From: Candidatus Babelota bacterium | GTDB taxonomy: Bacteria > Babelota > Babeliae > Babelales > JAHIUU01 | NCBI GenBank assembly: GCA_018817025.1 | Contig: JAHIUU010000006.1 | Location: 251,909-315,908, forward strand | Length of the DNA stretch: 64,000 nucleotides | Reading direction: 5' to 3' | Part shown: one piece after another, positions 57,239-63,479 of the stretch | Numbering within the stretch: position 1 is the first letter of the stretch | How the letters are laid out: each line of letters begins with the position of its first letter | The notes under the pieces: generated by a model | Told to the model about the DNA's origin: nothing | Databases searched by the model: none | Seen by the model: the letters and a program-made list of their open reading frames with translations, nothing else | Program-made: the position numbers and the translations under genes

Positions 57239-57341
57239 TGATCAGGAAATCAGGGAGTTTTACCTTGCGGGGGAGGACGGGCCTAGAAGTTCCTAAATTT
57301 GTATTTGTGTTTTTTTGTTTTACCGTTTCGAGGAGATGGTT

Positions 57342-58715
57342 ATGCTACGACTTGTTCGTGTTTTATGGGGTGATTTGACGAGAGATGAACTCAAGAAGTT
57401 CGGGATCTTGTCGGTTGCCATGATGTTGATTGTTGGTAACTATTGGATGTTGCGTGTAACTAAAGATGCGTTATTTGACGTCCTCGTTGGATTTCGTCAA
57501 TGGCAGCCGGTTGCAAAGATGATTTCTGTGCTCGTTATGGTTGTTGTTGTTCTTGGGTATAGTAAGCTTGTTGACATGCTCAGGCGACACCATCTTATCT
57601 ATCTGGTATGTTCTTTTTACGGGGTGACCTTTATTCTTCTCAGTTACCTTGCTACGAATCCAGAGCTTCTCGCAGTAAGTAGTACCTCCTTAATCTACCC
57701 ACTTGTGTCATGGATTCCGTCAAAGATTCCTGGTGGTGGTATTGGGTGGTTTGCCTATGTCTTTCTGGAAAGTTATGGTTCGCTTTTGATCGCAGTATTT
57801 TACTCCTTTATTGCGAGTGTTATGACAACCGGATTGGCGAAAAAGGGGTACGGTATGATGATGTCCATAACACAGTTTGGAACATTGTCTGGTGTGCTTA
57901 TCTCTATGTTTTTTGTCGAGCGAGTTGGCATTCCAATGTTGTACTTTTTTGGTGGGATCGTGGTTTTATCGGCACCGTTTATCATAAGGTACTACATATC
58001 ACAATTTCCTGAAGATATTGCCTCGACACAAGAGGCTGTTGCTGGGAAGAAAAATAAGACGGGATTTTTCGAGGGATTGCGACTTATTGCAACGCGGCCA
58101 TATATCATGGGTGTTTTTGTTGTCGTGACCGCCTATGAAATTATCTCAACTATCGTTGAGTATCAAATGAGCTGGATTGCTGTCGGGATTTATTCGCCAG
58201 AACAGTTCACTGTCTTTCGAACCTATCAGGGACTTGGAATTAACTTGCTTGCATTATTATTTGCCATTATCGGCACCAGCTTCTTCATGAGAAGACTTGG
58301 CTTGAAATTTTGTTTAATGGCGTTTCCTATTACGATAGGTGTGGTTGTGACTGCAAACTATCTTGTACGGTTGTCAGGGGCTGGAAATACCACCTTAATG
58401 TGGGTTCTTATGCTCGCAACGGTTGCGATCAAGGGTCTTAATTATGCGCTGAACAAACCAACCTCAGAAGTGATGTACATTCCAACCAGTAAAGATGTGA
58501 AATTTAAGTCAAAAGGCTGGATTGATGTTTTTGGAAATCGCTCGACCAAAGGAGTTGGTGCTACCGTGTCGAAGAGTCTGGGACACTCGCTTCCAGTCTT
58601 GTTGATGTACGGTACAATCATATCGCTTGGAATTGTTGGAGTTTGGTTATTGATAGCACAGTTTGTTGGTAATAAGTTCAACAAACTACAAGAACAGGAT
58701 GCGATTGTCGAATAA
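57342..58715 (+). CDS. Nucleotide transporter, NTT/TLC
   Basis: LWGDL..DE.KKF, YWMLRVTKD, NKP..E.MYIPT.KDVKFKSKGWIDVFG.R.TK; RBS AGGAG. Confidence 0.88.
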   Translation: MLRLVRVLWGDLTRDELKKFGILSVAMMLIVGNYWMLRVTKDALFDVLVGFRQWQPVAKMISVLVMVVVVLGYSKLVDMLRRHHLIYLVCSFYGVTFILLSYLATNPELLAVSSTSLIYPLVSWIPSKIPGGGIGWFAYVFLESYGSLLIAVFYSFIASVMTTGLAKKGYGMMMSITQFGTLSGVLISMFFVERVGIPMLYFFGGIVVLSAPFIIRYYISQFPEDIASTQEAVAGKKNKTGFFEGLRLIATRPYIMGVFVVVTAYEIISTIVEYQMSWIAVGIYSPEQFTVFRTYQGLGINLLALLFAIIGTSFFMRRLGLKFCLMAFPITIGVVVTANYLVRLSGAGNTTLMWVLMLATVAIKGLNYALNKPTSEVMYIPTSKDVKFKSKGWIDVFGNRSTKGVGATVSKSLGHSLPVLLMYGTIISLGIVGVWLLIAQFVGNKFNKLQEQDAIVE

Positions 58716-59004: not shown

Positions 59005-60318
59005 ATGAAAATTCCCACAATCTATCCAGTTACTTGTCATACTCGTCATGTTGGTCCAGGCTCGACTTTTGTTGCGATCGATGGGTTTAAGCGTAATGGC
59101 GTTTCGTTTCTTGATGAGGCGGTTGCTCGGGGTGCGACGACGCTTGTTATCAACAGGTCTCTGCAGGGACAGATCGCCTGTCCTCCTGGGGTCTCGGTTT
59201 GTTTTGTAGATGATTGTCGAAAAGAACTTGCAGGATTATCAAGTGTTGCCCTGGGGAATCCGTCAAAGAAATTAAAAATAATTGGCATTACCGGAACAAA
59301 AGGTAAGACGTCCACGACATATATTATTGAGTATTTGTTACGTCAGGTCGGCTATAAAACAGCCCTGTTGGGATCAATAAGAAACAAAATTGTCGACGAC
59401 CAGGTTGAAAGTACTTTGACAACTCCAGAGAGCGATTATTTACATGTTTTTTTCGATCAGTGTGTCAAGCGTGGTGTAACGCATCTCGTGATGGAGGTTT
59501 CGTCACATGCCCTTGCGCTCCATCGAGTTTTCGGAATTCAGTTTCATGTTGTTGGTTTTACAAATCTTGCTCCTGAGCACATGGATTTTCATCCAACCAT
59601 GGAGCAGTATTTTGCAACGAAAACAAAAATTTTCTCTCAGGTTCATCCTAACGGACATGTTGTAATAAATTGTGATAATGAGTGGGGGCGTAGGGCTGCA
59701 TCAGGTGTGAAAAACTGTGTTATGTTCCGTAAAACTGATATTGAACTTTCGATCCCGTCTCTTATGGGAGAGTTTAATAAGTATAATGCGATTATGGCTT
59801 ATCTAGTTTGTAGAAAACTAGGCTTGAAAGAAAAAGAAATACGTGAGTTCCTAAAAAAAATTCCCGGGATTCCCGGGCGTCTTCAGTTGCACGTGCTCAA
59901 AAATGGCGCTCGTGCGTTTGTTGATTTTGCTCACAATCCGTCTTCGTTTGAGGCGGTGTTGCAAACATTACGCTCTCTAAGTTCTCACTTAATTGTTTTA
60001 TTTGGTTGTGGGGGCGATCGTGATAAAAAAAAGCGTTCTGCTATGGGGCGCCTTGCGACGCAGTATGGCGACATTGTTATTGTTACCAGCGACAACCCAA
60101 GAGATGAGGATCCCATGACAATCATAAGAGATATTTGTCAGGGGGTAACAAAAGATGTGATTTGTGTGCCAGACCGAAAAGAGGCTATCGCTCGAGTGGT
60201 CACTTTTTCTCGGCCCGATTCTATTGTTGCCTTGCTAGGCAAAGGGCATGAATCATATTATCTTTGTGGGGGCGAGTGTTATCGGTGGAGCGACTTCGAG
60301 GAGATTAGTCAATATTAA
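59005..60318 (+). CDS. murE: UDP-MurNAc-tripeptide synthetase (Mur ligase)
   Basis: GITGTKGKTST, TTPES, MEVSSH, FTNL..EH.DFH, VDFAHNP, FGCGGDRD..KR, TSDNPR, GKGHE. Confidence 0.9.
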   Translation: MKIPTIYPVTCHTRHVGPGSTFVAIDGFKRNGVSFLDEAVARGATTLVINRSLQGQIACPPGVSVCFVDDCRKELAGLSSVALGNPSKKLKIIGITGTKGKTSTTYIIEYLLRQVGYKTALLGSIRNKIVDDQVESTLTTPESDYLHVFFDQCVKRGVTHLVMEVSSHALALHRVFGIQFHVVGFTNLAPEHMDFHPTMEQYFATKTKIFSQVHPNGHVVINCDNEWGRRAASGVKNCVMFRKTDIELSIPSLMGEFNKYNAIMAYLVCRKLGLKEKEIREFLKKIPGIPGRLQLHVLKNGARAFVDFAHNPSSFEAVLQTLRSLSSHLIVLFGCGGDRDKKKRSAMGRLATQYGDIVIVTSDNPRDEDPMTIIRDICQGVTKDVICVPDRKEAIARVVTFSRPDSIVALLGKGHESYYLCGGECYRWSDFEEISQY

Positions 60319-60332
60319 GAAAGGGCATACGT

Positions 60333-61334
60333 ATGAATAAAAATATATTATTGATAGTAATAGCGTCATTACTGCTTCTTTCGTCTTGTACAACAATTGG
60401 ACAAGATAAAGAGCGTTTCGATTACAAAGTAGTTATTATCGGTTCCGGTCCGGCTGGCCTTACTGCTGGCATTTACACGTCTCGAGGAAATTTTGACACA
60501 TTAATTGTAGAAGGCGATATCCCTGGAGGGTTATTAACCGAGACCCCTGAGATTGGCAACTGGCCTGGCGAAAAAAGCATCTCAGGATATGATCTCATGG
60601 AAAAAATTCGTGATCATGCAAAGCACGAGGGCTGCAAGCTTGTTTCAGATAGTGTTTCTAAAATCGATTTTTCAAAAAAACCATATACTATTTTCACGCA
60701 GGGCGGAAAGTCGTATCAAGCTCAAGCGATCATCATTGGTACGGGGGCGAAGCGAAAAAAACTTGGGTGTCCTGGCGAGCAGGAGTATTGGGGCAAGGGT
60801 GTCTCGGCTTGCGCGACCTGTGACGCGCCGTTCTATCGAGGCAAAACGGTGGCCGTTGTTGGTGGTGGACATACTGCTTTGACCGAAGCGCATCATCTAG
60901 CTCGTTTTGCAAAAAAAGTTATTATGATTCATCGGTCTTCAGAATTTCATGTTGCCGATCCAATAAAAGATAAAGTTATTCAAGACCCCAAAATAGAAAT
61001 TATTCACGATAGTTTGATACAGAAGATTATTGGTGATAGGAGAACCGTGACAGGAGTTGTGATAAACAATCGTTTGGATCAAAAAATTACGTCTATAGCA
61101 ACAGACGGCGTTTTTGTCGCTATAGGTTTCATTCCAAACGTCGAGATGTTTGATGGCCAGTTAGAGCTTGATGATCGTGGTTTTCTTAAAGTTTCGGGCG
61201 ACTCAAAGACGAGTCAAGAAGGGGTGTTCGCTGCTGGAGACGTAATTCATCGTAAATATCAGCAGGCGATTGTTGCTGCAGGCGATGGGTGCAAGGCGGC
61301 GCTCGACTGTATAGAGTATTTTGATAAGGGGTAA
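60333..61334 (+). CDS. trxB: Thioredoxin reductase with N-terminal lipoprotein signal
   Basis: IIGSGPAG, GG.L, GVSACATCD, VVGGG, IHR, GVFAAGDV; N-terminus MNKNILLIVIASLLLLSSC. Confidence 0.93.
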   Translation: MNKNILLIVIASLLLLSSCTTIGQDKERFDYKVVIIGSGPAGLTAGIYTSRGNFDTLIVEGDIPGGLLTETPEIGNWPGEKSISGYDLMEKIRDHAKHEGCKLVSDSVSKIDFSKKPYTIFTQGGKSYQAQAIIIGTGAKRKKLGCPGEQEYWGKGVSACATCDAPFYRGKTVAVVGGGHTALTEAHHLARFAKKVIMIHRSSEFHVADPIKDKVIQDPKIEIIHDSLIQKIIGDRRTVTGVVINNRLDQKITSIATDGVFVAIGFIPNVEMFDGQLELDDRGFLKVSGDSKTSQEGVFAAGDVIHRKYQQAIVAAGDGCKAALDCIEYFDKG

Positions 61335-61349
61335 CCTGGGGGTGATGTT

Positions 61350-63479
61350 TTGCAAACAAATTTACGTAAACGTTATGTTGTTTTACTTCTCAGTATTGCT
61401 GTTTTGTTTGCAACCGCTTGGCTGACGATTTTTTTCCAGCGCAAGCAGCATTTGATTGGCGGTGGAATCAATCGCACGTTTCTTTTTTTATTAATTAATG
61501 CTCACGTTATTGTGAGCATTATTCTTTTGTATTTAATTGTTCGTCAAAGCATAAAACTGTTTATTGAACGGCGAAAAAAGATTCCAGGTTCGGCGTTTAA
61601 ACGAAACCTGCTTTTTGCTTTTATTATCTTCTCTGTTATTCCTGGGGTTTTCGTTTTTTTTATAGCGGGAAAGTTTATTACGACTAGCATCGACCATTGG
61701 TTTGAGGCACGTCTTGGGACCGGGCTTGAGAAAGGCTTGTACCTGCATGAACAGCAGACCAGACAGGAGCGAGAAGCGATTGCGAGGTGGGGTTGCCTGA
61801 TAAAAGAAGGTGGGATATCTCGTTTGGATATTATTAAGCAAGAACACCCAGATCTTTCTCGTTATAAGATTTATCTATGGGGAAAGAATTTTTCTAAAAC
61901 TCTTAAAACTACTAAAGATATAGGTTCGATTGGTGACGAGGTTCGTGTTTGGAGGGAATTTAGAAAACGTAACGACCGATCGACGCAGAGTTTGCGAAAG
62001 GATTTCTTTACTCAGTTGAACCGGGCAGGAGTTGCTGGTCATACCTTTGATTTTTATGGGTCGCTTTACTGGGTAGCAAAAATTGGTGATTACCGGCTTG
62101 TTCTTGTTCATCGCTACCCAGATTTCATTCGTTATCCGTTGATTGAAATGCAAAATTCACTTGATGATTACTTGCAATTGAGATCGATAAGAAGTCCTAT
62201 CTACTGGAGCTACTTGGTTATGTTTTTATTGCTCACGCTTTTGATTTTATTTTTATCGATTTGGTGTGCGTTTTATCTTGCTCGTGGGATTAGTGAGCCG
62301 ATCAAAGAGCTGCTTTTATCCATAGGGAAAATTAGAGCAGGCAACTTTGATGCACAGGTCAGGCTAAAGCCGGCCGACGATTTGCTTTCTCTTGTAAGTG
62401 GATTTAATGAGATGACTCATTCTTTAAAACGTGCTTATACGAATCTTGAGTTTCACAATAAAGAGATGCTGACTATGCTGGAACATATTAAAGAGTCGGT
62501 GTTTTTTATTAACGATTATGGACGAATTGTCTCGTTCAACGAGGCTTCAAAAAAATTGGTAAAGCACTATCTTGGTGTAACACGATTTAAAAATAAGAAG
62601 ATATCTATCTTAGGGGTCTACGTTAAAGATCTTTTTTTTGCGCTGGTTAGAGAGCTTAAGACATCAGGCAATAGCGCTCCGCTATCACGCGAGATTTCTT
62701 TTTCGCATGAGGGTGAGATCAAAACGTTTATGGTGTACGGTGCGATTATGACATCCCATCGTGGCATTCTTGTTATTATTGAAGATATGAGTGACTTGTA
62801 CAAAATTAATAAAATCAAAACGTGGCAGGAAGCTGCCAAGCAGATGGCTCACGAGATAAAAAATCCGCTGACGCCGATTCAGTTGACTACGCAGCGCTTG
62901 CAAAGAAAGTTGCGAAAACAACCTGGTTGCGATCCGGTATTGATGGAGTGTACGCAAACCATTTTGCACCAAGTTGCCGTTATCAAAGGGCTTGTGACAC
63001 ACTTTTCTGAGTTCGCCAAAATGCCAGGGACTATTATAGAGCAGCTTGAGATTAATGCGATTATTAAAAAGGTTTGTTCTTTCTACGAGACCAGCTATCC
63101 GGAAATAGAGTTTTCGTATGACCTACAAAAGTTTTTGCCAACATTCAAGGCCGACAAAAAAAAGATGAAACGAGTTCTTGTTAATTTGCTTGACAATAGT
63201 ATTCGCGTTTTACGTGATTTTGATGATGAAAAAAGAATAACGATCAAGACTCGCTTTAGAACGGCAAGAAACCAAATAGAACTTCTTATTTCAGACAGTG
63301 GTCCTGGGATTTCTCGGGAGGTGCAGGAAAAGCTTTTTCTGCCCTATGTTTCGAGTGACAAAAAAAACATGGGGCTTGGGCTTGCGATTGCACACGATAT
63401 CATTTCTCAGGCCGGGGGCTCTATTAAGTTGCTTTCAGACTCTCAGGGTGCGACCTTTCAAATATTGCTACCTGTGTAG
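61350..63479 (+). CDS. NtrY-like sensor histidine kinase (TM, HAMP, PAS-like, HisKA, HATPase)
   Basis: W.E.AKQMAHEIKNPLTPIQL, NLLDNS, DSGPG, F.PYVS, GLGLAI. Confidence 0.93.
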   Translation: MQTNLRKRYVVLLLSIAVLFATAWLTIFFQRKQHLIGGGINRTFLFLLINAHVIVSIILLYLIVRQSIKLFIERRKKIPGSAFKRNLLFAFIIFSVIPGVFVFFIAGKFITTSIDHWFEARLGTGLEKGLYLHEQQTRQEREAIARWGCLIKEGGISRLDIIKQEHPDLSRYKIYLWGKNFSKTLKTTKDIGSIGDEVRVWREFRKRNDRSTQSLRKDFFTQLNRAGVAGHTFDFYGSLYWVAKIGDYRLVLVHRYPDFIRYPLIEMQNSLDDYLQLRSIRSPIYWSYLVMFLLLTLLILFLSIWCAFYLARGISEPIKELLLSIGKIRAGNFDAQVRLKPADDLLSLVSGFNEMTHSLKRAYTNLEFHNKEMLTMLEHIKESVFFINDYGRIVSFNEASKKLVKHYLGVTRFKNKKISILGVYVKDLFFALVRELKTSGNSAPLSREISFSHEGEIKTFMVYGAIMTSHRGILVIIEDMSDLYKINKIKTWQEAAKQMAHEIKNPLTPIQLTTQRLQRKLRKQPGCDPVLMECTQTILHQVAVIKGLVTHFSEFAKMPGTIIEQLEINAIIKKVCSFYETSYPEIEFSYDLQKFLPTFKADKKKMKRVLVNLLDNSIRVLRDFDDEKRITIKTRFRTARNQIELLISDSGPGISREVQEKLFLPYVSSDKKNMGLGLAIAHDIISQAGGSIKLLSDSQGATFQILLPV

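Follow-up and report, generated by a model that had tools for sequence, protein, structure and literature searches.

Where would a thioredoxin reductase (TrxR) work if its gene begins with a lipoprotein-type leader? The question is raised by a trxB gene at positions 60333 to 61334 (plus strand) of a 64,000-nucleotide stretch of a Candidatus Babelota genome (assembly GCA_018817025.1, contig JAHIUU010000006.1, positions 251,909 to 315,908), here called the window. In textbook bacterial redox biology, NADPH-dependent flavoenzymes reside in the cytoplasm, and electrons pass outward via DsbD or CcdA. A first-pass annotation of the window had taken the product for a membrane-tethered or exported reductase, possibly using host NADPH. 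Weighing sequence comparisons, structure models and the gene content of the source genome and its relatives, we lean toward a Sec-exported, LspA-processed, membrane-tethered thioredoxin reductase paralogue that would work outside the cytoplasm with host-derived cofactors, reducing an extracytoplasmic thioredoxin (Trx).

RESULTS

The window protein is a thioredoxin reductase

The open reading frame (ORF) encodes 333 amino acids. Its product scores 354.8 bits against the thioredoxin-disulfide reductase equivalog TIGR01292 (cut-off 343.45), covering model positions 1 to 299 of 300, and it matches solved TrxRs in the PDB with an E value of 1e-74, the homology starting at residue 31 or 32. An AlphaFold model built on 121 homologues has a mean predicted local distance difference test score (pLDDT) of 93.4 and a predicted template modeling score (pTM) of 0.83; when compared by Foldseek with TrxR crystal structures, it gives template modeling scores of 0.84 to 0.87 and root mean square deviations of 1.6 to 2.3 Å. 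The catalytic residues C160, C163 and D164 are invariant across the 121 homologues. AhpF was considered as an identity and rejected, the match to TIGR03140 reaching 244 bits against a cut-off of 502.9 and being confined to the C-terminal half of that model. No Trx domain was found in the 333 residues with Pfam, and thus the protein is not a TrxR-Trx fusion.

The NAD(P)H motifs of TrxR are defined as GxGxxA and HRRxxxR (E. coli H175-R181) (PMC10880999). At first pass, CATC and the NADPH motifs had been described as intact. This holds for CATC (residues 160 to 163) and GGGHTA (residues 177 to 182), and GSGPAG (residues 37 to 42) is intact too; the description was overstated for HRRxxxR, which reads HRSSEFH and keeps one of its three arginines. 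Pyridine-nucleotide binding is still likely, judging from the sequence motifs. The window protein is a true TrxB by all sequence and fold criteria save a complete HRRxxxR, and the lipoprotein-type leader is a location signal that this family is not known to carry.

The leader is kept throughout a clade of relatives

The N-terminal 19 residues, MNKNILLIVIASLLLLSSC, have the basic n-region, hydrophobic core and lipobox that the first-pass annotation had pointed out: K3 lies in the n-region (MNKN), an uncharged hydrophobic run of about 14 residues spans positions 5 to 18, and L-S-S precedes C19. We scored leaders with a PROSITE-style lipobox rule that asks for K or R in the n-region, an uncharged h-region, and [LVI..][AST..][GAS]-C with the Cys at position 15 to 35. 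The window TrxB matches with Cys19, and the rule is matched by just 16 of the 1027 ORFs of its genome. No twin-arginine (RR) motif occurs in MNKN. In the AlphaFold model, residues 3 to 23 are helical and stand apart from the enzyme body.

Among the best 120 homologues, 23 have a hydrophobic N-terminal extension, and in 22 of those a Cys follows G, A or S. The lipobox rule was matched by 19 of the 23 leader-bearing sequences and by none of 98 leaderless ones. Two more homologues (P0014 and P0015) are truncated gene calls and sisters of full-length leader-bearing sequences; the remaining 95, like the genome's own second TrxB, start about 8 residues before the Rossmann motif. In a tree built after the leader columns had been removed, 22 full-length leader-bearing sequences form one clade (Shimodaira-Hasegawa-like approximate likelihood ratio test [SH-aLRT], 98), nested among leaderless Dependentiae TrxBs and here called the lipo clade. 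Across this clade, identity in the enzyme part falls to about 50% and the leader sequence drifts freely, while the layout of a basic start, a hydrophobic run and [GAS]-C persists in every full-length member. The conservation check suggested at first pass thus turned out in favor of that annotation. By this comparison of sequences, the leader of the window TrxB is conserved, not accidental. The lipo clade is known mostly from metagenome contigs; among species-representative genomes we found no close orthologue, the best match being 56% identical and leaderless.

Could the leader nonetheless be an artefact of start-codon choice or annotation, or belong to a decaying paralogue, so that the product is an ordinary soluble cytoplasmic TrxB or none at all? 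The genome is metagenome assembled, and gene callers did truncate two of the homologues (P0014 and P0015). In the tree, however, those truncated calls pair with full-length sequences that have the leader; members of the clade, at 50 to 74% identity, conserve the leader as protein sequence, and all catalytic motifs are intact. As had been noted at first pass, no in-frame ATG, GTG or TTG lies between the lipobox and GSGPAG: codons 20 to 36 are free of them, and only the rare starts ATT and ATC occur, at codons 22, 35 and 36. The TTG at codon 7 is the sole in-frame common start within the leader, an in-frame stop lies 8 codons 5′ of codon 1, and a Shine-Dalgarno-like AAAGGG stands 7 to 8 nt ahead of the ATG at codon 1. 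We regard an artefact or a decaying gene as very improbable.

Export-type leaders recur among Babeliales paralogues and fusions

TrxB was found in every one of the 151 sampled Babeliales genomes, with two to four copies in most. Signal-peptide-like leaders were seen on 9 of 20 extra TrxB paralogues inspected, for example MKHYSFLLFLGLFCSSIHA before AQ, MYKKLYSLLLCSLCCFSASLSA before ED and MKISRARTILTLFFSFIHPVFA before QH, and three of the nine adjoin a leaderless copy. In one signal-bearing paralogue (G133:C3:225-1439, minus strand), located just downstream of a leaderless trxB, the leader-coding segment is tandemly duplicated, with MTTLLKIFGTLLFLTNSTTFCINQDDFNL appearing twice, 33 codons apart, an arrangement that seems to capture leader evolution in progress.

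Paralogues of about 500 amino acids are common; they are TrxR-Trx fusions in which, as in NTRC, the TrxR part leads (e.g., G147:C33:22139-23173 and G149:C3:51274-52302). A hydrophobic leader was present on all 20 sampled fusions, with a lipobox in about half. The Trx modules of these fusions have CPxC sites in which the customary Trp is missing (HCPTC, SCPGC, MCPAC), and a thioredoxin of the window genome, described below, is likewise CPxC (WCPPC). In the tree, the fusions and some short signal-peptide forms make up a clade of their own, and at least two further signal-peptide forms fall among leaderless sequences; this scatter implies that leaders were gained several times independently. Origin of the window gene by fission of a TrxR-Trx fusion was rejected, since it belongs to a separate clade (SH-aLRT 98) away from the fusions. 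We also rejected the general rule that an exported Trx is paired with an exported TrxR: nearly all Babeliales have leader-bearing thioredoxins, including genomes whose only TrxB is leaderless, and thus an exported Trx does not by itself need an exported TrxR.

The source genome encodes two TrxBs, two thioredoxins and LspA

The window is part of contig 21 of a metagenome-assembled genome of 1.10 Mb in 26 contigs, 96.7% complete, and the gene absences given here rest on hidden Markov model (HMM) or phmmer searches of that assembly. The genome is the sole member of its family among the species-representative genomes compared, and the protein relatives of the window TrxB are labelled Candidatus Babeliales or Dependentiae. 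A second, signal-less trxB, which the first-pass annotation had proposed looking for, does exist elsewhere on the same contig (locus L002, 1486-2415, minus strand; 310 amino acids), and there is a cytoplasmic-type thioredoxin of 106 amino acids with a WCGPC site. Alongside these, a thioredoxin of 156 amino acids has a lipoprotein leader, MSKIRSGKFFVMVFAISVVPG ahead of the Cys, and a WCPPC site; its gene lies on the same contig about 297 kb from the window trxB. Just two close homologues of it were found in a collection of 5.8 billion proteins, both with a lipobox and WCPPC, and one of them shares a metagenome sample with a 74%-identical lipo-clade orthologue of the window TrxB. The WCPPC thioredoxin gene is flanked by hisS on one side and, on the other, by two tandem paralogues for exported PEBP (YbhB/YbcL-type) proteins (C21:14032-17319), an order repeated in a relative.

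Of the export and lipoprotein machinery, LspA is intact (105.7 bits, above the cut-off), and no match to TatC was found in the 96.7%-complete genome by a search that was positive in 11 of 14 control genomes. Both results favor the reading made at first pass, where it was noted that cofactor enzymes normally leave the cytoplasm by Tat (twin-arginine translocation) and not by Sec/Lgt. The sole lgt homologue (C21:238942-239682), located about 12.5 kb upstream of where the window begins, has one in-frame TAA near position 239250, which heads a run of nine A's (...ATT TAT TAA AAA AAA ATT GAT...); the frame is the same on both sides. An assembly error, a genuine nonsense codon and read-through are all conceivable, and the interruption bears on every predicted lipoprotein of the genome. 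A CcdA/DsbD-type membrane protein is encoded at C21:228117-229109 (minus strand); it begins with a lipobox-like start, MNKKTLSLLLVTTLASCC, followed by a Lys/Glu-rich stretch of about 65 residues and then DsbD_TM.

These findings bear on whether the leader might be an uncleaved membrane anchor that keeps TrxB at the inner membrane but facing the cytoplasm, for example to pass electrons from cytoplasmic NAD(P)H straight to CcdA. Such an arrangement would suit an enzyme whose cofactors, flavin adenine dinucleotide (FAD) and NAD(P)H, are cytoplasmic, in a genome that has CcdA, no Tat system and an interrupted lgt in its assembly; some related fusions do have longer, anchor-like hydrophobic segments and no lipobox. 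The basic residues before the hydrophobic run, however, predict an N-in, C-out orientation, the uncharged run is merely about 14 residues long, and the G/A/S-Cys junction is kept in 22 of 23 homologues. Other Babeliales paralogues have cleavable-looking leaders (ending in IHA before AQ, LSA before ED and VFA before QH), and a leaderless cytoplasmic TrxB is already present. An uncleaved anchor seems to us unlikely.

Cofactor supply and the 2′-phosphate site

RibF was not found in the source genome by phmmer, tblastn or HMM searches, a weak match proving to be HldE. NAD kinase was not found there either, and it was absent from all 121 Babeliales genomes at least 90% complete; the same search was positive in 12 of 14 control genomes. 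No cofactor biosynthesis was reported in a comparative-genomics study of TM6. Lacking RibF and NAD kinase, the bacterium must import FAD and any NADP(H), which then have to cross the envelope. A host-dependent lifestyle with imported cofactors softens the paradox of sending an FAD/NADPH enzyme through Sec. A Zwf homologue is encoded, pointing to some NADP- or NAD-linked pentose-phosphate activity in the cytoplasm.

We then compared the positions that contact the 2′-phosphate (E. coli R176, R177 and R181). Among leaderless Dependentiae TrxBs, 94 of 96 have no basic residue at any of the three, usually having an acidic one; GxGxxA is kept, and HRRxxxR is replaced by HILDxLT or QISExLS. For the cytoplasmic enzyme of these bacteria, NADPH is thus probably not the electron donor; NADH or some other compound may take its place, as the loss of the NADPH pocket predicts. 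In the lipo clade, at least one basic residue occurs at these positions in 20 of 25 sequences and at least two in 14 of 25, one member having a full RRRDSFR; the TrxR-Trx fusions read VRKxxMR. With neither RibF nor NAD kinase in the genome and basic 2′-phosphate residues kept in the export-signal TrxRs, the idea of host cofactors, raised at first pass, gains indirect support.

A different way to account for an exported flavoenzyme is that it no longer reduces thioredoxin at the expense of NAD(P)H and instead is a flavin-dependent thiol oxidase or disulfide generator, using O2 or another acceptor and replacing the missing DsbA/DsbB, or a reductase with a donor other than NAD(P)H. Searches with E. 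coli queries gave no homologue of DsbA, DsbB or DsbG. In the partner thioredoxin, and likewise in the Trx modules of the exported fusions, the site is CPxC and not WCGPC, and its Pro directly behind the first Cys recalls periplasmic oxidoreductases; the HRRxxxR motif is degenerate, and NADPH in the periplasm is unproven. Set against this, the pyridine-nucleotide domain with GxGxxA is conserved across the clade, and most members keep basic or hydroxyl residues at the 2′-phosphate positions; RRRDSFR in one of them and VRKxxMR in the fusions are hard to explain without NAD(P)H binding. We judge an oxidase or an alternative donor quite unlikely.

Gene neighborhood and host association

Features of the trxB gene and its neighbors are listed in Table 1. 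The order murE, trxB, HAMP histidine kinase, ..., P-type ATPase, DeoC is kept at orthologues of 74% and 58% identity (P0003 and P0016), and a functional link between an envelope redox enzyme and the adjoining histidine kinase is possible. The MurE-like ORF has at most 437 amino acids, counted from the first start past the upstream stop, compared with 468 and 494 in the syntenic genes of relatives; Pfam matches just its middle and C-terminal Mur ligase domains, and the N-terminal domain may be shortened. The TLC-family transporter upstream marks a lifestyle that imports host nucleotides.

Table 1. Features of the window trxB gene, its product and adjacent genes (window positions)
Feature	Position	Strand	Basis
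Predicted signal peptidase II signal peptide, residues 1-18 (MNKNILLIVIASLLLLSS)	60333..60386	+	n-region K3, h-region 5-16, lipobox L-S-S; lipobox rule, architecture kept in homologues
Cys19, predicted lipidated +1 Cys; Thr at +2	60387..60389	+	G/A/S-Cys kept in 22/23 leader-bearing homologues
Short tether, residues 20-30 (TTIGQDKERFD), from lipid anchor to Rossmann fold	60390..60422	+	homology to solved TrxRs from residue 31-32; model strand from 30
Shine-Dalgarno-like GAAAGGG, 7 nt 5′ of ATG	60319..60325	+	direct reading; in 14-nt gap past murE stop (60316-60318)
Thioredoxin reductase catalytic body, residues 31-333 (FAD and NAD(P)H domains)	60423..61331	+	TIGR01292, PDB TrxR matches, AlphaFold model
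FAD-binding GSGPAG, residues 37-42	60441..60458	+	reading, alignment
Redox-active C160-A-T-C163 and D164 (acid catalyst Asp)	60810..60824	+	reading, alignment
NAD(P)H-binding GxGxxA motif, GGGHTA, residues 177-182	60861..60878	+	reading, alignment
Degenerate 2′-phosphate motif HRSSEFH, residues 200-206 (E. coli: HRRDGFR)	60930..60950	+	alignment
MurE-like Mur ligase, probably cotranscribed	59005..60318	+	Pfam; synteny with orthologues
HAMP/HisKA/HATPase histidine kinase, 709 amino acids, TTG start	61350..63479	+	Pfam; 15 nt past trxB stop; conserved synteny at 58-74% identity
TLC-family nucleotide transporter (PF03219)	57315..58715	+	Pfam; two tandem TLC genes at the same spot in a relative

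Elsewhere in the genome, several ORFs with signal-peptide-like N termini end in RING/U-box-like Cys patterns (CPICxE...CxHxxCxxC; C4:61544-62326, C16:26214-26918, C6:21340-22404 and C16:13205-15238). By their sequences, they look like exported, eukaryote-like E3-ligase effectors.

Host dependence also suggests that the window TrxB might be a surface-exposed or released lipoprotein acting on host molecules (thioredoxin, cystine, glutathione disulfide or proteins) and not on the bacterium's own envelope. TLC transporters, the lack of cofactor synthesis and the many exported eukaryote-like RING-type proteins all fit that lifestyle, and no periplasmic client of the bacterium's own was found with E. 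coli queries. The sequence, however, says nothing on sorting past the inner membrane, no Lol components were detected, and a dedicated lipoprotein Trx co-occurs in the lineage. Action on host molecules would in our estimation have only a slim chance of being the explanation.

DISCUSSION

A proposed extracytoplasmic route for reducing equivalents

How might such an enzyme operate? We imagine that the unfolded precursor would be exported by Sec, the route proposed because the genome has no Tat system, and that Lgt and LspA would lipidate it and cleave it at Cys19. The mature enzyme would then be held at a membrane by its 11-residue tether, facing the periplasm or perhaps exposed on the cell surface, where it would fold and bind FAD. 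Electrons would be taken from a pyridine nucleotide, most plausibly NADPH; the bacterium cannot make NADPH or FAD itself, and so both would have to cross the envelope from the host. They would pass via C160/C163 to an extracytoplasmic thioredoxin-fold protein, the best candidate being the WCPPC lipoprotein thioredoxin, which, once reduced, would keep envelope (or host-derived) disulfides reduced. The leaderless TrxB and the WCGPC thioredoxin would serve the cytoplasm. The sequences show the enzyme family, the intact catalytic motifs, the leader with its conservation, the second paralogue and the genomic absences; that the protein is exported and lipidated, that it loads FAD outside the cytoplasm, and what its donor, acceptor and clients are, we infer.

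Several points weigh against the scheme. We know of no demonstration of NAD(P)H in the periplasm of such bacteria, and a Sec-exported FAD enzyme must load its FAD after export. The donor is made uncertain by HRSSEFH, with one of three arginines left, and the association of export with basic 2′-phosphate residues consists of descriptive raw counts over few clades, amounting to 2 to 4 independent contrasts. The leader call itself rests on the lipobox rule together with conservation. On the side of lipoprotein maturation, lgt is interrupted, and E. coli queries detected neither Lnt nor LolA. The genome encodes CcdA, and leader-bearing thioredoxins are found in Babeliales genomes with a single leaderless TrxB. 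As to clients, AhpC, Tpx, Bcp, MsrA, MsrB, DsbA, DsbB and DsbG were not found with E. coli queries, whose sensitivity may be limiting, so that no periplasmic client was identified. Finally, the locus is present in just one sequencing run, of groundwater metagenome DNA, as contigs.

An extension of the membrane-tethered reductase is that the export-signal TrxRs could support a form of redox parasitism: they would oxidize host NADPH in the periplasm or at the surface and, via the lipoprotein thioredoxin and possibly CcdA running inward, could provide the envelope or even the cytoplasm with reducing power. The idea comes from the absence of NAD kinase and from the 2′-phosphate pocket being lost in cytoplasmic TrxBs and kept in export-signal TrxRs. 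We consider it possible, on the doubtful side. If true, it would amount to a pyridine-nucleotide-driven thiol-reducing system outside a bacterial cytoplasm.

Full-text literature searches turned up no account of a bacterial TrxR that is exported, periplasmic or a lipoprotein, and thioredoxin reductase is listed merely as an oxidative-stress gene in the comparative-genomics paper on TM6. The conserved clade of TrxRs with a lipoprotein signal, together with the signal-peptide and fused versions, would place a whole reductase outside the cytoplasm. The envelope of host-dependent bacteria that make neither FAD nor NADP would, if this is true, run directly on host cofactors. This would change the view of envelope redox homeostasis in intracellular bacteria, and perhaps of the developmental reduction of cross-linked envelopes.

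Comparison with known systems

The closest well-studied enzyme is E. coli TrxB (PDB 1TDE and 1F6M), which has the fold, the FAD motif GxGxxG, CATC-D and GxGxxA in common with the window protein, at about 42% identity over residues 31 to 333. E. coli TrxB is soluble and cytoplasmic, whereas the window protein has a 30-residue N-terminal extension bearing the lipoprotein signal. In the window protein, HRRDGFR has become HRSSEFH, GGQL has become GGLL and YRQAIT has become YQQAIV.

Nearer in location are the leader-bearing, NTRC-like TrxR-Trx fusions of Dependentiae, in which, within one and the same bacterial order, a TrxR body follows an export-type leader. By Rosetta-stone logic, they argue for a working partnership between TrxR and Trx modules that are both exported. 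The window protein differs in having no Trx domain, in descending from leaderless Dependentiae TrxB within a clade separate from the fusions, and in having its putative partner in a separate gene. In plants and cyanobacteria, NTRC stays in the compartment where NADPH is produced; the NTRC of chloroplasts and cyanobacteria (PDB 7P9D and 9VV4) is the solved relative of the fusions.

Extracytoplasmic thioredoxins that depend on DsbD or CcdA include the Streptococcus pneumoniae lipoproteins Etrx1 and Etrx2 with CcdA, as well as TlpA, ResA and CcmG. The purpose, bringing reducing power to the oxidizing side, is the same, the acceptors are lipoprotein-anchored thioredoxin-fold proteins, and the source genome has both a CcdA and such a thioredoxin. 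In those systems, however, the flavoenzyme stays in the cytoplasm and electrons cross via CcdA or DsbD; here, it is the flavoenzyme that carries the export signal.

For flavoproteins that are exported by Sec and loaded with flavin outside, examples are Shewanella FccA, with the FAD exporter Bfe, and the lipoproteins flavinylated by ApbE/Ftp, such as Listeria PplA. FccA and PplA are precedents for export of an unfolded flavoprotein that receives its flavin in the periplasm or at the surface. They take their electrons from quinol or cytochrome chains, and not from a pyridine nucleotide as proposed for the window TrxB.

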